35,424 nucleotides of DNA from a virus: UHGV virus genome UHGV-0155082; one strand, 5' to 3'. Under the pieces are notes generated by a model that made no database searches, was not told the DNA's origin, and saw only the letters and a program-made list of their open reading frames with translations. Positions 1 to 35,374 of this stretch are shown here, in pieces (position 1 is the first letter of the stretch; the number at the start of each line of letters is the position of its first letter). The position numbers were made by a program, and so were the translations under genes.

Positions 1-49
1 AAGCATTTTTAATGTTATGCCGCCAAAGTGCCGCCACTGCATTTGATTG

Positions 50-1579
50 TTAGTTTTCATTTTGGGAAATTTTTTCCAGAACTGAGTCAACCATTTTTAT
101 TCCCATCTCATTTACTACATCAGAATTAATAACTCTATCAAAATAGCTTTCTATATGTTGGGAAAAAAGGAAGGCTGCACTGGATGGTTCTTTGTTCTTT
201 TCAACTGCGTATTGCAGAACCATATGAGGAGGCACATGTGCATTTTTGCAGGATGCAACAAGGTACTCAAATTCATCAAAAGCTAAGCAAAATATATTTT
301 CTTTAGGTATGTGGTAGTCAGTATTGAATTTATCATATATCTTTAGCATCTCAGTTTCTGCATATGTACTGGCAAGGAATGTACCATTACCTAAAAATAA
401 GTTTTTATATGTAATGCATATCACAAAAGATTCTTTCCTGAATGGGGTTATTGTTGCTTTATCGTCTAAGTAAATTTCTCTGTTAACTTCATGAGCTTGC
501 TCGATAGCTTTTAAAACAGACTTTTTTATTTTTCCTGAAATATCCTCTGGCCGTAAAGTAACCATGCCTTTTTGATGTATTTCAACCCCCTTGGCATCAA
601 TGAATATATTTGCATTCGCGTGTGGAAACAAAAAATCAACTACTTTATTATCTTTGGGTAACTTTTCTTTAAGATGATCCTCTGTGATAACAGGAATATT
701 ACTCTCTTGAATAATTTTTCCTAATGCTCTTTCGAATACAGTTCCAAAACTGTCCATGAATTTTTCAGCGTCAGTTCTTCTTAAAAGGTCATATATAAAT
801 GTTTGTATGCTTCTTGATGTTAGTTGTGCATGTATCTGGAAATAATCAGAACCTTTTTTGATTAAAGGATTTTCTAAGTACGGTGAAGATGAATAGTATT
901 CTAACAAAGGCTTTTCAAATGTCTTGGATTTTGAAAATTTTGATAGCTCACTGTAATTTATTGAGATTGCATCGAGAAAGTTCTCTACGGTATCTTTGGG
1001 TAAAATAGGGAATAACACACTGAAACTATTGACATTTATTTTTCTGACGGGATGTTCCGTTGTTATTAGTGATATTAAAATGTAAGATAGTTTTAAAAAA
1101 TCATCAATTGAAATGTTTGTTAACTTGAAAAACGATGTCTTTATTTTATGAGTGTTTTCGAGTTGTGAGAATAAAAATACCTGTCTGCTAATGGAGTTTA
1201 TTGCGTCAATTTTTTGATAAATACCTTGTTGGTATAAATTATTTCTTAGAAAAAAATGCACTCCGTTTTTCTTTTCAAGACCAATGGGGATGATACTTAA
1301 AGTTTCATAGGCTTTTTGAAATAGCTTGATGGCTTGATTTTTTGTAAGGGTTTTGAACTTTCTATTCTTGCCTATTACAGATGCTGACCATTTTAAACAT
1401 AAGTTTACTATCCACGGCATATGACGCAGCATGTGTAAATTATCATCAAATTTTTGTAGATTATATTGCATGCAGAATTCAATGAATAATTCGGGGTTAT
1501 AACTTTGAATTTCTGAACGAATAGAGTCCATTCTCAGTTTAGCAACAGCATCTGATTGAATGTCTATATTTTTAATCAC
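50..1579 (-). CDS. Hypothetical 509-aa protein, AT-rich accessory gene immediately downstream of int on the same strand; possible PD-(D/E)xK-like nuclease motif in the C-terminal half
   Basis: Long ORF with GTG start at 1579 preceded on the minus strand by GGAG about 8 nt upstream. Only 12 nt separate it from the int stop. Visibly AT-rich codon usage unlike the phage core. Motif VDFLFPHANANIFIDAKGVE resembles a D...(D/E)xK nuclease core. No family recognised by eye. Confidence 0.55.
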   Translation of the reverse strand: MIKNIDIQSDAVAKLRMDSIRSEIQSYNPELFIEFCMQYNLQKFDDNLHMLRHMPWIVNLCLKWSASVIGKNRKFKTLTKNQAIKLFQKAYETLSIIPIGLEKKNGVHFFLRNNLYQQGIYQKIDAINSISRQVFLFSQLENTHKIKTSFFKLTNISIDDFLKLSYILISLITTEHPVRKINVNSFSVLFPILPKDTVENFLDAISINYSELSKFSKSKTFEKPLLEYYSSSPYLENPLIKKGSDYFQIHAQLTSRSIQTFIYDLLRRTDAEKFMDSFGTVFERALGKIIQESNIPVITEDHLKEKLPKDNKVVDFLFPHANANIFIDAKGVEIHQKGMVTLRPEDISGKIKKSVLKAIEQAHEVNREIYLDDKATITPFRKESFVICITYKNLFLGNGTFLASTYAETEMLKIYDKFNTDYHIPKENIFCLAFDEFEYLVASCKNAHVPPHMVLQYAVEKNKEPSSAAFLFSQHIESYFDRVINSDVVNEMGIKMVDSVLEKISQNEN

Positions 1580-1591
1580 GATTATTCTCCA

Positions 1592-2605
1592 TTATAAATT
1601 GTGCAGAGGATTTTTGGTCACAGCATCTTCAAGATGTTCTGGGGCAAAATGAGCGTAAACCATTGTCATTTTAATATCTGAGTGCCCAAGAATATCGCGC
1701 AGAACCAGAATATTCCCGCCATTCATCATAAAATGACTGGCGAATGTATGACGCAGCACGTGGGTGCATTGGCCCTCTGGTAGCTCGATGCCTGCTCGCT
1801 TTACTGCTCGTTCAAAGGCTTTTCTGCACGGGGTGAATAGCTTCCCTCTGTTCTTGGGGAGTTCGTCATACAGATTTTGAGATATCGGCACGGTACGATT
1901 TTTCTTACCTTTTGTCTTGGTATAGGTGATCCGGTATTTTGATAACTGATGGCCCTGCAGGTTTTCTGCTTCACTCCATCGCGCACCAGTAGCCAGGCAT
2001 ATTTTTGCAATCATTAGTAGGCTGGTGTTTTGAGATTCGGCGCAGGCATTAAGCAGGCGTTTGATTTCGTCCGTGGAAAGAAAAGCCAGTTCACCTTCAG
2101 CAATTTTGAAGGTTGGAAGCCCAGCCAGCGGGTTTGGTGCGGACCAGTGTCCTAGTTTTTTCAATGTACCGAACACCGATGACAGGTTACGCTGCTCAAG
2201 ATTAACTGTGCGAGGTTTAACGGGTGACATGAACGAGCCGTCTTCATTTTGGACCTCCCCCTTTAATCTGGCTTCCCGATATTTTGTGAAATCACCTGCT
2301 GTCAGCTCAGAGGCGATGGGATCGCCTAGACCATTACAGATAATTCTAAGTTTCGCCATCAGGCGTTTGGGGTCTGCGAGTGTTTGACCATATAGGGAAT
2401 ACCACTGCTCAATCACTTCTGATAATCGCCGCCGATCTTCCTTCTCACCAAGCCATGGCTTTTTGTTTACTTCGTCCATGGTGAAGTTTTCGAATGCTAT
2501 GGCTTCGCCTTTCGTGGCAAATTGCTTACGCACGCGCTTGCCATTGCGTCCATTGGGATAGCACTCACACAACCATTTTCCGTTCGGCTGTTTTCTGATG
2601 GTCAT
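1592..2605 (-). CDS. int: Phage integrase, tyrosine site-specific recombinase (P2 Int-like)
   Basis: 337 aa, same length as P2 Int. C-terminal catalytic region ...CTHVLRHTFASHF...LGHSDIKMTMVYAHF contains the R/H-x-x-R-H...Y signature of tyrosine recombinases. Sits directly downstream of the repressor gene, as in the P2 C-int operon. Confidence 0.9.
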   Translation of the reverse strand: MTIRKQPNGKWLCECYPNGRNGKRVRKQFATKGEAIAFENFTMDEVNKKPWLGEKEDRRRLSEVIEQWYSLYGQTLADPKRLMAKLRIICNGLGDPIASELTAGDFTKYREARLKGEVQNEDGSFMSPVKPRTVNLEQRNLSSVFGTLKKLGHWSAPNPLAGLPTFKIAEGELAFLSTDEIKRLLNACAESQNTSLLMIAKICLATGARWSEAENLQGHQLSKYRITYTKTKGKKNRTVPISQNLYDELPKNRGKLFTPCRKAFERAVKRAGIELPEGQCTHVLRHTFASHFMMNGGNILVLRDILGHSDIKMTMVYAHFAPEHLEDAVTKNPLHNL

Positions 2606-2606
2606 A

Positions 2607-3239
2607 TCAAAGGCTCTTAATGATTTTCAGTGCACGGCCTACTACCTCAATGTCATCCAGGCCACACTCAAACGATGAATCATCCTGATGCACTACTAAT
2701 CTGTTTCCCGGGAGTCGAGTCAATTTAACAATGCTTTTTATCCCGTCGATATCGACTAACCACATACCATTCACTGGTGGTGTTTGGTTGCGATCTATTA
2801 AATAAGAATCACCGGAAGTAGTCACCAGCAGCAGGTTGCTTGAGTCTGAGGGGAGTATGCTGCTATCAATGATTGCTTTTCCAGCATCGACCAATAAACC
2901 ACCGTTGAGAGTTGCCTTGTCAATTTCAGGAGATACAAGCTCAGAAAGAGGTTTAACTTTGCTTGAGTTCACGAAATTGATATTTTTTTTAGGGTCAATA
3001 TTTGAACCTGGCTCGCCCTGTCCGGTGGTTAGCCACAGTAAAGAAACTCCTGTTTCCAGGGCGCACTGAATCACCCACTCAGCTGGAAAACTATCTCTTA
3101 AATATCTGTTTGCCATGGTACTTTTTGATGCGCCTAAGTGATCGCAAAGTTGCTGTCTGGACTTGAAATCATAGGCTGCCATTAGTCTATGGATAGCCTC
3201 TCTTCCCCCTGTATTCTCACCAGCCTTTACTTGTACCAT
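2607..3239 (-). CDS. Immunity repressor, 186 CI-type (N-terminal HTH, C-terminal S24/oligomerisation-like domain)
   Basis: 210 aa. N-terminal HTH-like segment KSRQQLCDHLGASKSTMANRYL. C-terminal GMWLVDIDGIKSIVKL resembles LexA/CI-type beta domain. Positioned divergently from the cox/apl-like gene and upstream of int. Confidence 0.7.
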   Translation of the reverse strand: MVQVKAGENTGGREAIHRLMAAYDFKSRQQLCDHLGASKSTMANRYLRDSFPAEWVIQCALETGVSLLWLTTGQGEPGSNIDPKKNINFVNSSKVKPLSELVSPEIDKATLNGGLLVDAGKAIIDSSILPSDSSNLLLVTTSGDSYLIDRNQTPPVNGMWLVDIDGIKSIVKLTRLPGNRLVVHQDDSSFECGLDDIEVVGRALKIIKSL

Positions 3240-3633: not shown

Positions 3634-4143
3634 ATGTTTGATTACAAGATTTCCAAACATCCGCATTTTGATGAAGCCTGTAGGGCTTTTGCACTACGCC
3701 ACAACCTGGTGCAACTGGCAGAACGTGCAGGCATGAATGTGCAGATTCTGCGGAACAAGCTGAACCCAGCTCAACCTCATTTATTAACCGCACCAGAAAT
3801 CTGGCAGCTTACCGATCTGACTGAAGATTCAACGCTGGTAGACGGTTTTCTGGCACAGATTCATTGTCTGCCATGTGTACCGATTAATGAGGTGGCAAAA
3901 GAGAAACTGCCACATTACGTTATGAGTGCAACTGCAGAGATAGGGCGTGTCGCGGCAGGTGCGGTTTCTGGCGATGTAAAAACCAGTGCAGGCCGTCGTG
4001 ATGCGATCAGCAGCATTAACTCTGTTACACGACTGATGGCGCTGGCTGCTGTTTCATTGCAGGCCCGTTTACAGGCTAATCCTGCGATGGCGAGTGCAGT
4101 TGATACCGTGACTGGCCTCGGTGCCTCATTCGGTTTGCTGTGA
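3634..4143 (+). CDS. CII-like lysogeny establishment regulator (186 CII / CP76 family)
   Basis: 169 aa, the length of 186 CII. Second gene of the early operon. RBS GGGGG before the ATG. Alanine-rich C-terminus. Confidence 0.55.
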
Positions 4144-4957: not shown

Positions 4958-5184
4958 TGGCTGATGCAATGGATCTCGTACAGCAGCGCGTTGAAGAAGA
5001 ACGCCAACGCCATATCCGTGCTGCCCGTGCCAAAACGCCGGGCGTGTCCCGCGTGCTTTGCATTGAGTGTGAAGCGCCAATTCCGCCAGCACGCCGCCGT
5101 GCCATTCCGGGTGTGCAGCTTTGCATTACCTGTCAGGAAATCGCAGAGCTGAAAGGCAAACATTACAACGGAGGTGCTGTATGA
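4957..5184 (+). CDS. DksA/TraR-family C4 zinc-finger protein
   Basis: 75 aa with CIECEAPIP...(17 aa)...CITCQE, i.e. C-x2-C ... C-x2-C typical of the TraR/DksA C4 finger. Start overlaps the upstream stop. Confidence 0.65.
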   Translation: MADAMDLVQQRVEEERQRHIRAARAKTPGVSRVLCIECEAPIPPARRRAIPGVQLCITCQEIAELKGKHYNGGAV

Positions 5185-6038
5185 GCACCATCCTGAAATG
5201 GGCGGGAAATAAAACTGCCATAATGTCCGAACTGAAAAAACATCTTCCTGCTGGCCCGCGACTGGTTGAACCTTTCGCGGGTTCCTGTGCTGTGATGATG
5301 GAGACGGATTATCCCAGCTATCTGGTTGCGGATATTAATCCTGATTTAATCAACATCTATAAAAAGGTTGCCGCTGATTGTGAATCGTTTATATCTCGCG
5401 CCAGAGTTTTATTTAAGGAAGCAAACAGGGAGGTGGCTTATTACAACATAAGGCAGGAGTTTAATTACTCAACTGAAATTACTGATTTCATGAAAGCGGT
5501 ATATTTCCTGTATCTCAATCGTCACGGTTACCGTGGTTTATGTCGCTATAACAAGAGCGGGCATTTCAACATTCCCTACGGTAATTATAAAAATCCGTAT
5601 TTCCCTGAAAAAGAAATTCGCGCATTTGCAGAAAAGGCCCAGCGAGCAACGTTTATCTGCGCCAGCTTTGATGAAACGCTGGCGATGTTGAAGGCGGGGG
5701 ATGTGGTGTATTGCGATCCGCCGTATGACGGTACGTTTTCCGGCTATCACACTGACGGCTTCACTGAAGATGACCAGTATCACCTGGCATCTGTTCTTGA
5801 ACATCGGTCATCAGAAGGACATCCGGTCATTGTTTCTAACAGTGACACATCCCTGATCCGTTCGCTGTATCGCAATTTTACTCACCACTACATCAAGGCA
5901 AAACGCAGCATCGGTGTGGCAGCTGGCGAGGGTAAATCAGCAACAGAAATCATTGCTGTTTCCGGGCCGCGCTGCTGGGTGGGATTTGATTATTCGCGTG
6001 GCGTGGATAGTTCTGCCGTGTACGGAGTACGTGCATGA
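5181..6038 (+). CDS. dam: DNA adenine methyltransferase (Dam-like, N6-adenine MTase)
   Basis: ATG at 5181 preceded by GGAGGTG. N-terminal [11 protein letters not shown]...EPFAGSCAV (AdoMet-binding motif I) and catalytic DPPY motif ([10 protein letters not shown]). Confidence 0.85.
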
Positions 6039-8449: not shown

Positions 8450-8541
8450 TTACGAGGGTTAACAATTCGTGCTCTTAATAATACCAGGCATATCAGGCTG
8501 ATGAACGTAAAAAAACGTTTTGCATCAGTAAGATTATTATA

Positions 8542-8561
8542 TACTGTAAATATAAACAGTG
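8542..8561. promoter_or_regulatory. LexA (SOS) box
   Basis: taCTGTaaatataaACAGtg matches the CTGT-N8-ACAG SOS-box consensus. Lies about 40 bp upstream of the RBS and ATG of the 8603 ORF. Confidence 0.65.
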
Positions 8562-8602
8562 GTTATGTATACAGTATTGCTTGTGGTGTCATAGGAGGAA
8601 AG

Positions 8603-8791
8603 ATGCAGGACTATTTTTTGGAGTCTTTGAAGCTCCAGCGCATTGATTTTTTTCTTAAGCTTGTAGCGGCTAGTGAGTGTAGTGATGAAGAGAAGGGGCT
8701 GGCTTTGCAGTGGGTTTCTGAACTGACAGATGAACTCATGGCAAAAATCAGAAGCCACGAATACAACCGCTCAATGGATGTCATCAGCTGA
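8603..8791 (+). CDS. Small SOS-regulated protein (62 aa), possible Tum-like antirepressor
   Basis: ATG at 8603 preceded by AGGAGG. Directly downstream of the LexA box. Followed by a DinI-like ORF, an arrangement reminiscent of 186 tum. Confidence 0.45.
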   Translation: MQDYFLESLKLQRIDFFLKLVAASECSDEEKGLALQWVSELTDELMAKIRSHEYNRSMDVIS

Positions 8792-8801
8792 GGGGACTTT
8801 T

Positions 8802-9035
8802 ATGCGCATTGAAATAATGATCGATAAAGAGCAGAAGATTAGCCAGTCTACCCTGGACGCCCTTGAATCCGAGCTTTACCGCAATCTGCGCCCCCTGTAT
8901 CCCAAAACGGTAATTCGTATCCGTAAAGGTAGCTCTAACGGTGTGGAACTGACCGGACTGCAACTGGACGAAGAAAGGAAGCAAGTGATGAAAATTATGC
9001 AGAAGGTGTGGGAAGACGACAGCTGGCTGCATTAA
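8802..9035 (+). CDS. DinI-family protein
   Basis: 77 aa starting MRIEIMIDK...; the pattern MRIE..I.K......DAL..EL.R.......P....V.....S.......G..........I..I....WE..D.W matches E. coli DinI. RBS GAGGGGA upstream. Confidence 0.75.
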   Translation: MRIEIMIDKEQKISQSTLDALESELYRNLRPLYPKTVIRIRKGSSNGVELTGLQLDEERKQVMKIMQKVWEDDSWLH

Positions 9036-9305
9036 GAAACGTTGCTGGCGTCTGAACTTGCTTCTGGCGTCAGCAAGGTTGAACAACGAGCTGTGCGAGG
9101 CGTTAGTGTCAATTTGTTACCTTAACCACGATATATGCCAGGAAATTAACAGTTCTTAAGAAACCGCTTGCATGATCGAGCGCATTGAACTTAAGTTTAA
9201 GTAACGAAATCAACAGATGATATTGTTGTCTAAATTTTAAAGATAATCTGTTGAGGTTGTAGGCGTCGGAGTGTAGACTTCCGCGCCATGTAAAAAGGGG
9301 GAGTT

Positions 9306-9521
9306 ATGTCAAGCATCGCCGCATTTAGCCTGGGTAACCCAGTTGAACGTCTGGCAAGGGTTCTTAAAGAGAACCAGGACAAACTCAATCTTAGTAAAGA
9401 TGGTTTTGTGTCCGTAGACTTGTCTAACAAAAGAGCAATGGATGCCATCAAGGCACAGATGGATAAGCTTGAAGGCATCAAAACGAGCACTGTAAAAGAG
9501 AAAACTAATAGAACCAGATAA
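9306..9521 (+). CDS. Hypothetical 71-aa soluble protein, first gene of a two-gene accessory operon
   Basis: ATG preceded by AAGGGGGAG. Stop TAA overlaps the ATG of the downstream 280-aa gene (TAATG). No recognisable motif. Confidence 0.5.
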   Translation: MSSIAAFSLGNPVERLARVLKENQDKLNLSKDGFVSVDLSNKRAMDAIKAQMDKLEGIKTSTVKEKTNRTR

Positions 9522-10363
9522 TGGCAACATTACTTTTAGCAGTGATTTTGGTTAGTGGTTTTATTTATGTAAACCTATCACTTTCAACAAGATACCGATA
9601 TAAGCGTTCCAACGGCTGGGACGCTTATTTTTTTGTGGCTGCCTGGGGTATCGTTTTTTTTCTCCTTGGCGGTTTTTTCACCTTTATTTTGAACGTCAGC
9701 GGAGGGTTTCGTTGGCTGGCTAATGCCTTGAATCTAACACCTGACAGTTTTAATGGCATGTTGTCTTCATCGAAAGACAAACTTCAAAGAATAAATGAAA
9801 TCAAACAGATAGCATGGGTTATGATTTCAATTGTCCTCGCTGCGATTTCAGGTTTTGGAAATAAGTTACGCACATCACGTGGAGATCGTCGCTGGGATGC
9901 CTTAGCTAAAGCTGTGGGTAATAACGCTTTCGAATCATTACTCATGGAAGCGTCCGCAAGACAGTTTCCGATCATAGCAACTCTGTCGTCTCGCAAAATC
10001 TATGTTGGTCTTGTTACTTGTCCGGCGTTAGAAAACGGGCTTTCAGAGCACCTTGAACTTCTCCCGATGTTAAGCGGATATCGGGATAAAGATGATCTAA
10101 CGATTAGTATCACGACTAACTATCACCAACATTATCTTGATAGTGGTGTGATAAGTGGAATGTCTCGTCTTAATATCGAAGATTTCCGTGTGCTCATACC
10201 AAAAGATGAGGTTGAAACAATTTCGTTTTTTGATACTGAGACATATAACAAATTTAAAGAAAATGAAGCCAGGGATAGAAAGAGCTGTCGAAAGATTGGT
10301 AGTAAAAGTGCATCTTCGCGCAGCAAGCGTGCAGCAGATGCTGAGTCAAATGATCGTGCATGA
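9521..10363 (+). CDS. Hypothetical 280-aa integral membrane protein (three predicted TM helices plus a charged C-terminal domain)
   Basis: Hydrophobic segments LLLAVILVSGFIYVNLSL, AYFFVAAWGIVFFLLGGFFTFIL and IAWVMISIVLAAISGFG. Lysine/serine/arginine-rich C-terminal tail. Occupies the position of tin/old in P2. Followed by a terminator. Confidence 0.6.
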   Translation: MATLLLAVILVSGFIYVNLSLSTRYRYKRSNGWDAYFFVAAWGIVFFLLGGFFTFILNVSGGFRWLANALNLTPDSFNGMLSSSKDKLQRINEIKQIAWVMISIVLAAISGFGNKLRTSRGDRRWDALAKAVGNNAFESLLMEASARQFPIIATLSSRKIYVGLVTCPALENGLSEHLELLPMLSGYRDKDDLTISITTNYHQHYLDSGVISGMSRLNIEDFRVLIPKDEVETISFFDTETYNKFKENEARDRKSCRKIGSKSASSRSKRAADAESNDRA

Positions 10364-10410
10364 CTATGCTGCATGAGATCGCATGATCGTTTGAGGATCG
10401 TTTTTGCTAA

Positions 10411-10436
10411 GGCCCGCCAGAACTGGCGGGCTTTTG
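10411..10436 (+). terminator. Rho-independent terminator after the 71-aa/280-aa operon
   Basis: GC-rich hairpin gcccgccag / ctggcgggc followed by TTTT. Confidence 0.65.
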
Positions 10437-10480
10437 CGTAGATCATGCACCTGCATGAAAACTACTACATAAAGCGGGCA

Positions 10481-10499
10481 GGCGTGGCGGGGATACGAG
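10481..10499. other. Candidate cos (cohesive-end) region
   Basis: GC-rich ggcgtggcggggatacgag matches about 14 of 19 positions of the P2 cohesive end as I recall it (ggcgaggcggggaaagcac). Lies in non-coding DNA upstream of the portal/terminase cluster. Recalled from memory and not verified. Confidence 0.3.
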
Positions 10500-10588
10500 C
10501 GCGCGCTGATGGGGGACGCAGTGCTTTTGGCATAGTTATGAGGTAGAATTTCAAAATACTTTTTAGCGCTGTTGGAGGTATAGACAAA

Positions 10589-11134
10589 ATGGACGTTATA
10601 ACTGGAGTTGCAGAGTTTTTTCGAAAAGTACCTGCAGCATTTCTTGTGGCTATTACATGTGTTTTAGGTCTTATACTTTTTCTGCCAGACTCTTTGGCAG
10701 TAAAAGTGGCTGTTGATGGCTTTCGTAATGAGTATAGGATTTTTATTGGACCTGCATTTTTACTGTCTGTATCTTATTTAGTTGCAAGAGTCTATCTCTC
10801 TTTCTATGACTTACTTGGTGAAAGGCAGGCTAAGAAGGTACGCACTTCCTACCTTGAGAAGCTAACAGCAGAAGAAAAAGGATATTTAAAGTCTTATATT
10901 ACCGAAGGTGTTAATTCACTTATGTGTGGGCCTGAGGATGGGGTCATGGGGGGACTTGTGGCTAAGGGGATTACTTATAGAGCCACCAGTGTTGGGGATA
11001 TGATCTACGGTTTTGCTTTCAACTTACAGCCATGGGCGCGTGAACATTTAGAGAAAAATAGTCATTTATTAGATGGGGCTATTGGGCGTGCAATGACTCC
11101 AAGAGAAAAATTAAACTTTAGATTGGGACGCTAA
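10589..11134 (+). CDS. Hypothetical 181-aa membrane protein, possibly a superinfection-exclusion (SieB-like) protein
   Basis: ATG preceded by GGAGG. N-terminal TM helix AAFLVAITCVLGLILFLP and a second hydrophobic segment IFIGPAFLLSVSYLVARVYL. Lies between the cos-like element and the portal gene. SieB assignment is from weak recollection only. Confidence 0.45.
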   Translation: MDVITGVAEFFRKVPAAFLVAITCVLGLILFLPDSLAVKVAVDGFRNEYRIFIGPAFLLSVSYLVARVYLSFYDLLGERQAKKVRTSYLEKLTAEEKGYLKSYITEGVNSLMCGPEDGVMGGLVAKGITYRATSVGDMIYGFAFNLQPWAREHLEKNSHLLDGAIGRAMTPREKLNFRLGR

Positions 11135-14971: not shown

Positions 14972-16030
14972 ATGAAGAAGAATACCCGCTTTGCTTTTAA
15001 CGCTTACCTGCAGCAGCTGGCGCGTCTGAACGGTGTGGCAGTTGAAGAGCTGTCCAGCAAGTTCACCGTGGAGCCGTCCGTGCAGCAGACGCTGGAAGAC
15101 CAGATCCAGCAGTCCGCCGCTTTCCTGACGCTGATTAATGTCACCCCGGTGACTGAACAGTCCGGTCAACTGCTGGGGCTGGGTGTTGGTAGTACCATTG
15201 CCGGAACCACTGATACCACCGCAAAAGAGCGTGAGCCTGTCGATCCGACGCTGATGGTCGATGTGGAATATAAATGCGAGCAGACCAACTTTGACACGGT
15301 GCTGACCTACGCGAAGCTGGACCTGTGGGCGAAATTTCAGGATTTCCAGGTGCGTATCCGTGACGCCATCGTGAAACGTCAGGCACTGGACCGCATCATG
15401 ATCGGCTTTAACGGTGTGAAGCGTGCGAAAACCTCCAACCGTAGTGAAAACCCGCTGCTGCAGGATGTGAACAAAGGCTGGCTGCAGAAAATCCGTGAAG
15501 ATGCACCGGATCACGTCATGGGTAGCACCACCACGGGCGGTGAAACCACACCGGGTGCGGTGAAAGTCGGGAAAGGTGGCGAATATGCCAACCTGGACGC
15601 CGTGGTGATGGATGCCGTCAATGAGCTTATCGACGTGGTCTACCAGGACGATGACGATCTGGTGGTGATTTGCGGTCGTGAACTGCTGTCTGACAAGTAT
15701 TTCCCGCTGGTCAACAAAGAGCAGGAAAACAGTGAAAAACTGGCTGCCGATATGATCATCAGTCAGAAACGCATGGGTGGCCTGCAGGCCGTGCGTGCGC
15801 CGTTCTTCCCGCCGAATGCACTGCTGATCACCCGTCTGGATAACCTGTCCATCTACTGGCAGGAAGACACCCGCCGCCGCTCAGTTATCGACAACCCGAA
15901 ACGTGACCGGATTGAAAACTTTGAATCCGTTAACGAAGCCTATGTGGTTGAGGACTACCGCTGCGCCGCACTGGTGGAAAACATCCAGATTGGCGACTTC
16001 AGCGCCGCAGCAGCAGAAACCGGAGCGTAA
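14972..16030 (+). CDS. N: Major capsid protein (P2 gpN-like)
   Basis: 352 aa (P2 gpN is 357). Position between scaffold and small terminase. Confidence 0.9.
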   Translation: MKKNTRFAFNAYLQQLARLNGVAVEELSSKFTVEPSVQQTLEDQIQQSAAFLTLINVTPVTEQSGQLLGLGVGSTIAGTTDTTAKEREPVDPTLMVDVEYKCEQTNFDTVLTYAKLDLWAKFQDFQVRIRDAIVKRQALDRIMIGFNGVKRAKTSNRSENPLLQDVNKGWLQKIREDAPDHVMGSTTTGGETTPGAVKVGKGGEYANLDAVVMDAVNELIDVVYQDDDDLVVICGRELLSDKYFPLVNKEQENSEKLAADMIISQKRMGGLQAVRAPFFPPNALLITRLDNLSIYWQEDTRRRSVIDNPKRDRIENFESVNEAYVVEDYRCAALVENIQIGDFSAAAAETGA

Positions 16031-19973: not shown

Positions 19974-21089
19974 GTGTTAGCAAATAATCAAATAATTGAT
20001 GTGCCCGCAGCTGGAAGCTTTAATTTTATTACCGGAGATAATGGGACCGGTAAAACAAGGTTTTTGACAATTCTGGCCAATTCGGTTTTAAATGATTTGA
20101 TTTCGAGTAGTAGTGAATATGATAAATTAATTTGCCTGACTGGTACTGTTTATGAGAAATTCCCTAGGCCATTAAAAAAGAAAGATTATAAAAGTGAGAA
20201 ATACGATAGAGTATATTCTTATTTTGGCGGCAGGGTGAACAATAACGTTTTCTCAGGTCTCTCGCCTTTTAGAGTTATAATGAAATGCTATTGTGGGTTT
20301 GAAATAAATCCTGGTTCTTTTGAGTTGGCAGATAAATTATTAAATGATCTTGGATTTAGTTCTACGGTGGAATGTAAGTTTAGAAATGAAAAGTCTAAGT
20401 TGGAGAATAGACGCTCTATAATCAACAATGAGGATGTAACTGTAGATTTATCTAAGTCTCCGTCACAACTGACTAACATGAAAAGGCAAAGCATTGCTAA
20501 TGATGATTTGTTCTTATTAAATATAAATTTTGTTAAGCTTTCTGATAAAAAATCATATGGCATACGAGATCTGAGTTCTGGTGAACGAAGTTTTATAATA
20601 ACAATATTGTCACTTGTGTTTAGTTTGAGAGAGCGAACCCTCATTTTATTTGATGAGCCAGAGAACTCAATGCACCCTAAATGGCAGGAGAAAATAATAT
20701 CAACAATTAAGTATATTGTTGATATGCTATCACCTGAATCAACTGTAATAATTGCAACTCATTCCCCATTGGTTGTTTCATGTGTGACAAATAATAATAC
20801 ATTTACATTGAATTTGCCTGGTGAGCACATATGGAAAGCTTCATATTATGCTGGTAATAACGCTGATTCAGTGTTAAAGGAACAGTTTGGGGTGATCTCG
20901 CCAAGATCTGAAGAATTTCAGATTGCTATGCAAAAATGTTTGACTTCATTTAGTTTGAATGAAGAAGGTGGTTCTTTCTTGCAGGATATGGAGCGATTGT
21001 TTGGGATGAAAATATCCTTAAATAAGGATGACCCACTTTATGATGCTTATGAGACACTTACGGATTTTTATCTGGAGAGGAAACTATGA
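19974..21089 (+). CDS. ABC-type/AAA_21-like ATPase, Septu PtuA-like candidate defence ATPase
   Basis: 371 aa, AT-rich. Walker A GDNGTGKTR (residues about 21-29), signature-like LSSGERS, Walker B LILFDEPE, H-loop-like ATHSPLV. GTG start with AGGTG upstream. Stop overlaps the start of the HNH gene (ATGA). Confidence 0.75.
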   Translation: MLANNQIIDVPAAGSFNFITGDNGTGKTRFLTILANSVLNDLISSSSEYDKLICLTGTVYEKFPRPLKKKDYKSEKYDRVYSYFGGRVNNNVFSGLSPFRVIMKCYCGFEINPGSFELADKLLNDLGFSSTVECKFRNEKSKLENRRSIINNEDVTVDLSKSPSQLTNMKRQSIANDDLFLLNINFVKLSDKKSYGIRDLSSGERSFIITILSLVFSLRERTLILFDEPENSMHPKWQEKIISTIKYIVDMLSPESTVIIATHSPLVVSCVTNNNTFTLNLPGEHIWKASYYAGNNADSVLKEQFGVISPRSEEFQIAMQKCLTSFSLNEEGGSFLQDMERLFGMKISLNKDDPLYDAYETLTDFYLERKL

Positions 21090-21775
21090 GCTTGGGTCCG
21101 GGGAAGCTAAGTCCGGTGCATAGGGTTTTTATAAACAGAAGGGAAGCTAGACTGTTGATAGCTGAATTTCTTTCTGGAACAATTCTTTGGTCTGATCCAA
21201 AGTTATCTGCGCTAAAGAATAATATAAGGCTCTCTTTACGAGAGCAGCAATGTGGGCGTTGTGTTTTTTGTCGGAGAATAATAAAAGAGGAGCGCAGAAA
21301 CACTACTGAAGATATTGAGCACTTTCTGGATAAATCCAAAGGGTACTATAAGAAATGGGCCTTTCATCCTATGAATTTATCTATAGCATGTCACTCATGC
21401 AACTTTGTTAAAAGTACGAAGCAAATGGGAGATGTTAATATTCAGCGCGCGCAGTATCTAGTGCCTGGTATTGGTGTGTTTAGGTGGTTGCATCCATATT
21501 TTGACGACTATCATGAAAATATCTCAATAGAGAAGGGTTGGGTATATCGTATTGTTGATGGAGCGCCAAATCATAATGGAGCAGAAAATTTAATTAGAGA
21601 ATGTGAGTTGTCGGGAATAGCTAATATAGAACGCAATGCTGAGAATTATAAATTGACCTGTCAAAGGCTATTAAAGTTAGCAATTGCTTGTGCCGAAAAA
21701 GGTCGAATTACACGAATGAAAAAATTGCAGTTGTCTTTGCAGAAATTAATGGAATCGAAACAATTTGACTTTTAG
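21086..21775 (+). CDS. HNH endonuclease, Septu PtuB-like candidate defence nuclease
   Basis: 229 aa. CGRCVFC ... EDIEHFLDKSKGYYKKWAFHPMNLSIACHSCN gives an H...N...H core flanked by C-x2-C pairs (zinc-finger HNH). Translationally coupled to the upstream ATPase. Confidence 0.8.
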   Translation: MSLGPGKLSPVHRVFINRREARLLIAEFLSGTILWSDPKLSALKNNIRLSLREQQCGRCVFCRRIIKEERRNTTEDIEHFLDKSKGYYKKWAFHPMNLSIACHSCNFVKSTKQMGDVNIQRAQYLVPGIGVFRWLHPYFDDYHENISIEKGWVYRIVDGAPNHNGAENLIRECELSGIANIERNAENYKLTCQRLLKLAIACAEKGRITRMKKLQLSLQKLMESKQFDF

Positions 21776-26374: not shown

Positions 26375-26501
26375 CTGAGAATTAAATGGTTAGTATCATC
26401 CTCCCCCACACTGCCTATATGGTATGAATACGAGGGGGAGGCTGTTTGTTGTCTGTTTCTGTGATAATATTAGATTCTCGTTTTTTAATAAAAAAATCAA
26501 T

Positions 26502-27512
26502 ATGAAAGAGAATAAAATACGTTCTGCCGATGGCGTGAGAGGTTTCGCTTTGATGATTGTTGTGGTGATGCATGCTACGGGACTATTCTTTCCCTCACTT
26601 CATGATCATCTCGGAGGTACGGGGCAGCCCGGTGTTTGGTTGTTTTTTGTTCTTAGCGCCTTTTTGTTGACACATAAATTTATTAATTCTGGTTTTTCGT
26701 TTTTGAATGTGTTGAGTTATCTTTTAGGGCGAACAATAAGGATATTACCGATTTTTTATATTGCAGTATTAATTTATTACCTTATGGGATTTTATGATTT
26801 AGAGAAAATGAAATCGATAATTTCATTTGATAGTACTTACATCCATCTCTGGACTATTCCGATAGAATTCAAGTTTTACTTTTTGTTGCCGATTGTGGTT
26901 TATCTCGCATCTAGTATCCAGAAAGTTGCAGGTAGAAAATATTCTTTGTTGTTTTTGATATTGTTAACCTTAGCGTTCGCTTTTATATACCCTTATACGG
27001 ATGACGAAATCAACGGTAGGCTACCGTATTACATTCCTGTTTTTATGTATGGAATTATAATTGCGTTTATGTATAACTATTTTCAAATTAAAATATCATC
27101 TCTCGTTAGTGATGGGGTGTCAATTGCGATTATATTAATATTTATAATGTTGACCCCTCCTTTTCAGGGGGCTAATGGTTGGCTGGGTAATAAATTTGTG
27201 GTATTAGGGCCATTTATTGCTCTCTTTGTATATCTGCAAGTAAATTCCAGTGGGTATGTAAGCGCGGTTTTATCTTCAAAAATCATGGCGGATTTGGGGA
27301 AATATAGTTTTTCAATTTATTTGTTTCATATAATGATAATTTTTATTGTTTATCCTAAATTTTTGGATAATGTTACTGCATACTTAGTTACTATAGCTTT
27401 ATGTATTGGCGGTGGGGCTATTGCCTATCATTGCATTGAATCTCCCTTGGAATCGTTCAGACATAAGCTTATGAAAAGAATAACGCAGGCTTATCAGAAT
27501 CAAAATATTTAA
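26502..27512 (+). CDS. Acyltransferase family 3 integral membrane protein (OafA/Oac-like, probable O-antigen/LPS acyltransferase)
   Basis: AT-rich ORF; the six-frame ORF begins at 26424 and the likely ATG is at 26502. N-terminal R-x-x-D-G-V-R-G-x-A...H motif (IRSADGVRGFALMIVVVMHATG) of the acyltransferase_3 family. About 10 hydrophobic segments. Located between G and FI. Confidence 0.75.
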   Translation: MKENKIRSADGVRGFALMIVVVMHATGLFFPSLHDHLGGTGQPGVWLFFVLSAFLLTHKFINSGFSFLNVLSYLLGRTIRILPIFYIAVLIYYLMGFYDLEKMKSIISFDSTYIHLWTIPIEFKFYFLLPIVVYLASSIQKVAGRKYSLLFLILLTLAFAFIYPYTDDEINGRLPYYIPVFMYGIIIAFMYNYFQIKISSLVSDGVSIAIILIFIMLTPPFQGANGWLGNKFVVLGPFIALFVYLQVNSSGYVSAVLSSKIMADLGKYSFSIYLFHIMIIFIVYPKFLDNVTAYLVTIALCIGGGAIAYHCIESPLESFRHKLMKRITQAYQNQNI

Positions 27513-34872: not shown

Positions 34873-34894
34873 AACCTGCTACGGCAGGTTTTTA
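34873..34894. terminator. Bidirectional rho-independent terminator between ogr and the convergent BRCT-domain gene
   Basis: Hairpin aacctgc-tacg-gcaggtt followed by TTTTTATT on the plus strand; T-rich on the other strand as well. Confidence 0.65.
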
Positions 34895-35374
34895 TTCATC
34901 TGGGATCTCACCCGTTTCAAGAAAATGTATAAAGCCAGGCTCATCTATGATGATTGTGCCTTTCATCCTGGCTGCCGATACTTTTGATGGGCCTGCATTG
35001 TAACCGCAACAGAGCATCTGAAGGCTTTGGGTTACAGAGGTTCTTACCGTTAATCCTTGGTCATTCGCCTTATCAACCAATCTTTCTTTATCTGCTTTCT
35101 TAAATCCGGTGAAACACACATCGAATGTATTTTTTTTCGGACCTGACTGCTTAGTGAGATGTGAGTAGTTTTCGGGGAGGAATGACGCGCATTCCTGAAT
35201 GGCTTGTTCTGGTGAATCGTACTGTTTAAGAATGCGGTCTTTTCGGAAGGTTTTTATTCGATCGGTGTTTTTACAAATGCCCTGTATATGATTTTCGCTA
35301 TAACTGATGCTCTGTATAGAGTGAACACCGATACGACCATTTGCATTGATGTAAACAAAGTGAAGTTCTTCCAT
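34892..35374 (-). CDS. Small BRCT-domain protein (160 aa), function unknown
   Basis: The C-terminal 80 aa (FDVCFTGFKKADKERLVDKANDQGLTVRTSVTQSLQMLCCGYNAGPSKVSAARMKGTIIIDEPGFIHFL) align by eye to the NAD-ligase BRCT domain pattern (TG...R..a......G..v..SV...t..lv.G..aGsK..kA...G..iI.E..f). N-terminal 70 aa unassigned. Confidence 0.5.
   Translation of the reverse strand: MEELHFVYINANGRIGVHSIQSISYSENHIQGICKNTDRIKTFRKDRILKQYDSPEQAIQECASFLPENYSHLTKQSGPKKNTFDVCFTGFKKADKERLVDKANDQGLTVRTSVTQSLQMLCCGYNAGPSKVSAARMKGTIIIDEPGFIHFLETGEIPDE

Follow-up and report, generated by a model that had tools for sequence, protein, structure and literature searches.

GAPS1 was described as cargo of a Vibrio GMT island and consists of one protein whose C-terminal domain is of the PD-(D/E)xK type (Mahata et al., bioRxiv 10.1101/2023.03.28.534373). 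In that study, the D313A and K328A substitutions each abolished defence of Vibrio GAPS1 against T7, T7 escapers of GAPS1 mapped to the capsid protein gp10, and co-expression of gp10 with GAPS1 led to dormancy, not death. Three E. coli homologues of GAPS1, EJP5250929.1 among them, were protective against diverse coliphages, an endogenous homologue was found to protect E. coli ZH142-A, and ∼78% of the GAPS1 homologues found in RefSeq genomes were from K. pneumoniae (bioRxiv 10.1101/2023.03.28.534373). The interval between int and att has itself been listed as a minor defence hotspot of P2, with 3% of P2 defence systems (preprint 10.64898/2026.02.27.708500).

Here, we describe a gene in the corresponding interval of the viral genome UHGV-0155082, whose whole 35,424-nt stretch was analysed and is referred to as the window. 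We consider it very probable that this gene, gapS1, encodes a single-protein anti-phage nuclease, that it is int-att cargo of an ssrA-integrating 186/P2-like prophage and that it works in the manner proposed below. Coordinates of the features are collected in Table 1.

Table 1. Features of the window and of the elements lying in tandem with related prophages
Feature	Position	Strand	Description	Basis
Inner end of conserved attP/attL arm	1..49	.	direct repeat GCCGCCA-N4-GCCGCCA at 19-36; att core ∼78 bp outside the window	
gapS1 CDS	50..1579	minus	509 aa, GTG start, TAA stop at 50-52	ORF list
PD-(D/E)xK nuclease core	380..769	minus	∼residues 271-400; helix E283, strands D315 and D328-A-K330, helix Q361	
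Catalytic motif D315-x12-D328-A-K330	590..637	minus		136-sequence conservation, Vibrio GAPS1 spacing
N-terminal all-helical domain	800..1579	minus	∼residues 1-260; putative sensor or substrate-binding part	
int-gapS1 junction	1580..1591	minus	12 nt, Shine-Dalgarno GGAG at 1587-1590	sequence
Tyrosine integrase int	1592..2605	minus	337 aa	ORF; site-specific integrase in orthologous loci; Pfam Int_N + Phage_integrase on identical-context contigs
186-type CI repressor	2607..3239	minus	210 aa	ORF; Phage_CI_repr + Phage_CI_C; annotation 'phage repressor protein CI'
Dam-type DNA adenine methylase	5121-6038	+	early operon; not adjacent to gapS1	annotated in relatives
gpA-to-portal (tin/old) hotspot	8500-11134	+	three genes	
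DinI-like protein	8730-9035	+		Pfam 1e-22
280-aa ORF	9521-10363	+	no match in any library	
SieB-family superinfection-exclusion protein	10589-11134	+	181 aa	Pfam 4.5e-25
PtuA-like AAA ATPase + PtuB-like HNH nuclease	19974-21775	+	overlapping, 35.6% GC, between S (tail completion) and V (baseplate)	
Acyl_transf_3 protein	26424-27512	+	362 aa, 33.8% GC; Z/fun slot, tail-fibre assembly / tail-sheath genes	1e-26
BRCT-like ORF	34892-35374	minus	160 aa, between ogr and ssrA-side att	weak BRCT (Pfam 1.7e-3; PADLOC PDC-S48 3e-7)
Tandem second element (related loci)	L001 2496-3692; L002 16-3975; L003 538-3606; L006 6868-10822; L010 5885-9530			

The gapS1 gene and its predicted nuclease centre

Judged from its sequence, the product of the window gene is a member of the GapS1 (GAPS1) family. 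It scored 447.3 bits against the NCBIfam model NF047931 (antiphage_GapS1; curated cut-off 320), with residues 20-475 aligned to positions 1-455 of the 455-position model. The identical 509-aa protein (P0001) is present in NCBI and UniRef under the name 'GapS1 family protein [Escherichia coli]' and occurs on 82 contigs, near-identical copies are found in Salmonella and Citrobacter, and RefSeq labels an orthologue of 83% nucleotide identity, located directly after int and CI, as gapS1. The protein shares 57% identity and 76% similarity over 506 residues with the E. coli protein EJP5250929.1, which falls in the 90%-identity cluster of P0014. Look-up of the other tested accessions, EGQ2075554.1, WP_152927281.1 and WP_194242909.1, in the clusters found none of them. 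A first-pass annotation, made from the letters of the window alone, had considered a single-gene defence nuclease, a suggestion that is upheld by the NF047931 match and by the protective activity of the 57%-identical E. coli homologue. As an allele of a family that has been named and validated by experiment, located in a prophage slot that has been described before, gapS1 is already known.

An exhaustive HMMER search returned 1684 clusters (50% identity) at E<=1e-3, nearly all of ∼500 aa and matched end to end, and the family representatives are nearly all 490-525 aa in length. A second, word-indexed homologue search, run with the alignment, contributed a single further fragment, and the Vibrio founder protein was not among its matches. 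Strong matches in PHROGs were to phrog_14259 and phrog_34771, both of unknown function, and a Pfam scan of the protein yielded nothing significant. Searching the PDB with a family sequence profile gave chance-level matches only, indicating that no GapS1 structure has been solved. In keeping with a single-protein system, the gene is flanked on one side by int at a distance of 12 nt and on the other by the 49 nt of the att arm, and the neighbouring genes differ among distant GapS1 homologues.

A 509-codon ORF in DNA of 32% GC with more than 1600 homologous clusters is real and far beyond chance, while the ORFs opposite gapS1, all <=49 aa, look like chance occurrences. The GTG start is supported by homologues whose N-termini (MIKNL.., MKRL..) coincide with it. 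On the minus strand the junction with int reads TAA-T-GGAG-AATAATC-GTG, in agreement with the first-pass placement of the start 12 nt past the int stop on the same strand; the GGAG noted there was also recovered, its spacing to the start codon being 7 nt and not the 8 nt given, a trivial difference. The gene was likewise said to be far more AT-rich than the phage core, and its GC content is indeed 31.6% (GC3 27.6%), compared with 47.2% for int, 43.9% for CI, 49.8% for the whole window and ∼53% for the phage core. An Rfam scan of the whole window gave no match, and a repeat search of window positions 1-1700 found none.

Conservation was scored over the query and 135 homologues (136 sequences; median identity to the query 25%). 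Aspartate 315, lysine 330 and glutamine 361 are conserved in 100% of these sequences and position 328 is acidic in 100% (D in 100, E in 36), followed by E300 (96%) and E283 (93%). Residues 314-331, VDFLFPHANANIFIDAKG, contain D315, D328 and K330, and this stretch is the predicted catalytic core of a PD-(D/E)xK-type nuclease. Its likeness to a D...(D/E)xK core had been pointed out in the first-pass annotation, and the finding that the three positions are invariant in the 136-sequence set, with D315 and K330 at 100%, speaks for that assignment, which loss of these residues among homologues was to overturn. D315 and K330 are spaced by 15 residues, as are D313 and K328 of Vibrio GAPS1, and considering this equal spacing, and that they are the only invariant D and K, they presumably correspond to the Vibrio pair.

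A predicted structure, which the same annotation had called for, gave a concordant picture. The AlphaFold2 model of GapS1 (19-sequence alignment as input; mean pLDDT 87, pTM 0.87) contains, in its C-terminal half, a restriction-endonuclease-like fold with the topology helix (E283)-strand (D315)-strand (D328, K330)-helix (Q361)-strand, and its structural matches are PD-(D/E)xK nucleases only, for example Upx, BspD6I, FokI and Can2. The helical N-terminal half of the model had no structural match. This half contains some of the best-conserved residues of the family, namely W56, K63, W64, Q117, Q118 (99%), Q122, R132 (96%) and F137 (98%), whereas the most divergent segments of GapS1 are residues 161-235 and the C-terminal tail. 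Conserved Q117, Q118, Q122 and R132 look more like a binding site than like a fast-evolving sensor, and the pattern of conservation, as read from the alignment, is unlike the simple prediction of a variable N-terminal sensor joined to a conserved C-terminal effector.

Expression and proposed mode of action

gapS1 is the third gene of a minus-strand string in which 1 nt separates CI from int and 12 nt separate int from gapS1. In relatives, the int-gapS1 junction measures 12 nt in E. coli TOK-001 and 8 nt in L006, and it is a 4-nt overlap in the Klebsiella phage ST437-OXA245phi4.1. A scan of the minus strand for consensus terminators from CI to the end of gapS1 found none, and a consensus promoter scan gave fewer promoter-like matches than were obtained with shuffled sequences. 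Since the gaps are of 1 and 12 nt and are free of terminator-like sites, co-transcription of gapS1 with CI and int in the lysogen is plausible; the coupling to int and CI on the same strand that had been proposed at first sight is thus in line with the arrangement of the genes.

Starting from the family membership, catalytic motif, predicted fold and cargo position of gapS1 established in this analysis, we propose a mode of action in three steps. The gene would be transcribed and translated in the lysogen as part of CI-int-gapS1, as suggested by the short gaps, its own Shine-Dalgarno sequence and the terminator scan. GapS1 would remain inactive until a superinfecting phage makes its major capsid protein, which the non-nuclease part would sense, as extrapolated from Vibrio GAPS1 and T7 gp10. 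The C-terminal PD-(D/E)xK centre (E283, D315, D328, K330, Q361) would then cleave a nucleic-acid substrate, whereupon the infected cell would stop growing or become dormant, so that the infection fails and the lysogen population and its prophage are protected. Protection has been demonstrated in the literature for Vibrio GAPS1 and for E. coli homologues, including the 57%-identical allele that occupies the same prophage slot, and the need for the catalytic residues, triggering by capsid protein and dormancy for Vibrio GAPS1. These properties would apply to the window GapS1 by analogy, and the trigger, substrate and expression of this particular allele are inferred.

The main mechanistic rival concerns the trigger and the mode of attack. 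Since the window GapS1 is far from Vibrio GAPS1 (in the ∼24-29% range of the E. coli homologues), capsid sensing may not transfer, and the protein could be a GapS1-family nuclease that responds to something other than capsid or that directly degrades incoming phage DNA instead of inducing dormancy. Mapping of the capsid trigger was limited to Vibrio GAPS1 and T7, Mahata et al. consider active phage elimination by GAPS1 possible, and the E. coli homologues protect against differing sets of phages; in addition, Upx, the nearest solved fold and a PD-(D/E)xK defence nuclease, reportedly attacks intermediates of phage replication and is reported to respond to a different phage protein as its activator. 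On the other hand, the endogenous E. coli homologue in ZH142-A brings about growth arrest at high MOI, which fits dormancy, and we regard a different trigger or direct degradation as rather unlikely.

Alternatively, gapS1 might serve the life cycle of the phage, either as an addiction toxin nuclease or as a nuclease of excision or replication, considering that it lies in the int operon beside attP and that nuclease activity coupled to growth arrest resembles a toxin. The gene is dispensable, however, as close prophages with ∼90%-identical int and CI lack it, and the 12-nt and 49-nt flanks are too short for an antitoxin-like partner gene. Moreover, family members cloned alone protect against unrelated phages and are non-toxic without the trigger, and distant GapS1 homologues occur in non-phage islands. 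A role in the phage life cycle is, in our estimate, improbable.

The first-pass annotation, although correct in suggesting a single-gene PD-(D/E)xK nuclease and in noting an AT-rich composition, had also named Shedu-like nucleases and a new family as candidates. The protein had no Pfam match, DUF4263 included, and zero matches to PADLOC models, Shedu among them, even at E<=10. PADLOC-DB 2.0.0 (2023) may predate GAPS1, so that its silence does not argue against defence, but it does exclude Shedu and the other families modelled by then. SduA came only 20th among the structural matches to the GapS1 model, at superfamily level only. As the curated GapS1 model is passed and the identical protein already bears the GapS1 name in NCBI and UniRef, the Shedu-like identity and a new defence family founded by gapS1 were both rejected as very improbable.

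The exchangeable int-att slot and the prophage that carries it

Both ends of the window stop short of the att cores, and direct att repeats were not found inside it; the att site was for this reason mapped in relatives of the window prophage. E. coli TOK-001 has the orthologous prophage at the 3′ end of ssrA, with a 45-bp copy of the ssrA end 132 bp past the gapS1 stop and intact ssrA at the opposite prophage end. On the contigs with identical gapS1, the 45-bp ssrA core lies 127 bp past the stop, and the genes beyond the core vary between genomes. The locus with the 57% allele (L006) has the same order of int, gapS1, an arm of ∼115-130 bp and the ssrA core, and in Klebsiella phage ST437-OXA245phi4.1 (49% allele) gapS1 directly follows int and is 114 bp from the same core. 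Comparison of related genomes placed the junction at a 45-bp ssrA core 127-132 bp past the stop.

The arm and the 45-bp core from the ssrA 3′ end are present in L001, L002, L003, L006 and L010, whichever gene occupies the slot. Related prophages that share the att arm, and whose int and CI are ∼90% identical, hold a 197-aa hypothetical protein or a 331-aa HNH-motif protein in place of GapS1. The interval is accordingly bounded by att, lies between conserved anchors, holds varying genes and, in the window, has a deviant GC content. Because gapS1 is inside the int-att interval in relatives and other genes occupy the slot, we identify it from these comparisons as exchangeable prophage cargo and not a host gene. 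That it is a chromosomal gene of the host merely abutting the prophage can be dismissed, for although the window lacks the att cores and its ends alone cannot settle the question, every relative that was inspected had the gene between int and the att core, contrary to the occurrence at this locus without a prophage that the first-pass annotation named as decisive, and Klebsiella phage records contain it. The family is not confined to phages, since a distant homologue (∼30% identity) lies alongside resolvase, patatin and NERD genes in an island that is not of phage origin.

The direct repeat sits at the inner end of the conserved att arm of ∼95 bp, which is kept regardless of the cargo gene. 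In L001 it is found at 4017-4034, with equivalents in L002 and L003 and the form GTCGCCA in some relatives, and it marks the left border of the slot. These repeats may be arm-type binding sites of Int. Beyond the att core, the ssrA site holds a second, integrase-bearing element in tandem, the cargo of which varies between genomes, examples being a P4-like element that has Psu and a NACHT protein, a resolvase/ParB element and an nSTAND/Mrr_cat Avs-like protein.

Tentatively, and with considerable doubt on our part, the int-attP slot of ssrA-integrating 186-like prophages may be a precisely bordered exchange cassette, running from the int stop codon to the ∼95-bp arm that ends in GYCGCCA-N4-GYCGCCA, with expression hard-wired to the lysogenic CI-int transcript. 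The gapS1 alleles, 49-100% identical, would circulate through it among Escherichia, Salmonella, Klebsiella, Enterobacter and Citrobacter, and their variable segments, residues 161-235 plus the C-terminal tail, would shape the recognition of foreign capsids while sparing the phage's own capsid on induction. If so, the locus would be a natural system for the study of self/non-self discrimination in prophage capsid sensing.

In its gene content the window matches a P2/186-like (Peduoviridae) prophage, with the order CI, int, an 80-aa Apl/Cox-like ORF, CII, Fil, Dam methylase, a gpA-type replication endonuclease, portal, terminase, capsid, tail genes, D and Ogr. Whole-length relatives of 83% nucleotide identity were found by megablast in twelve Klebsiella phage records and fifteen complete E. 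coli chromosomes. The prophage's own capsid protein, gpN, is encoded at window positions 14972-16030. Further accessory genes are present. The 371-aa PtuA-like protein matched PADLOC PDLC00266 (4e-41) and the 229-aa PtuB-like protein PDLC00313 (1e-27), and together they are a predicted Septu-type defence pair in the 'orf30' slot of P2. The Acyl_transf_3 protein is probably an O-antigen acyltransferase, with a putative role in lysogenic conversion or receptor masking. The 160-aa ORF is annotated as a 'BRCT domain-containing protein' in some RefSeq genomes and is conserved (97% identity) across many prophages of E. coli.

As a discovery the identification of gapS1 is small, the family having been described and validated in 2023-24 and the identical protein being already named in public databases; there are also published reports of GAPS1-like proteins in Klebsiella prophages of the P2 type and of the int-att interval as a defence slot of P2. 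It is useful as annotation, in that the prophage appears as a multi-layer defence carrier (GapS1, the Septu pair, a SieB-like protein and an O-antigen-type acyltransferase), and the sharply bordered, cassette-like nature of the int-att slot is of modest interest. With a putative capsid-sensing nuclease in the lysogenic operon of the phage itself, it can also be asked, as a tractable question, how the carrier avoids triggering its own defence on induction.

GapS1 of the window compared with described systems

GAPS1 of Vibrio parahaemolyticus VPaI-6 (WP_005477165.1) resembles the window protein in its length of ∼500 aa, its C-terminal PD-(D/E)xK domain, the D-x14-K spacing and its carriage as cargo of a mobile element. 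It differs in that this element is a GMT island and not a P2/186-like prophage, and identity is low, the E. coli homologues being 24-29% identical to it. A second system, with demonstrated activity, is EJP5250929.1; the representative of its 90%-identity cluster, P0014, occupies the equivalent CI-int-gapS1-arm-ssrA-core slot in a 186-like prophage. EJP5250929.1 is another allele, most divergent at residues 161-235 and in the C-terminal tail, and owing to this divergence the range of phages may differ. A third relative is encoded by the Klebsiella phage ST437-OXA245phi4.1 (NC_049448), also of the Peduoviridae, in which a 49%-identical protein is encoded with the 4-nt overlap with int mentioned above; it was flagged as GAPS1-like in the Phold paper from structural similarity only (PMC12774648).

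Two other single-protein systems are more remote. Upx (PDB 9wuf) is a defence nuclease of 1212 aa with two PD-(D/E)xK nuclease domains, and its 10-12% identity to GapS1 amounts to no sequence-level relationship, the two being similar in the nuclease core only. Shedu (SduA, DUF4263) is unlike GapS1 in sequence models, with a different N-terminal domain and family. With respect to genomic position, gapS1 conforms to the defence hotspots of P2-like phages (Rousset et al. 2022, PMC9122126; 10.64898/2026.02.27.708500), in which an AT-rich accessory gene fills a slot that is short, variable and flanked by conserved anchors. The classic, well-populated hotspot of P2 lies between gpA and the portal gene, beside cos, whereas gapS1 of the window occupies the minor slot between int and att.
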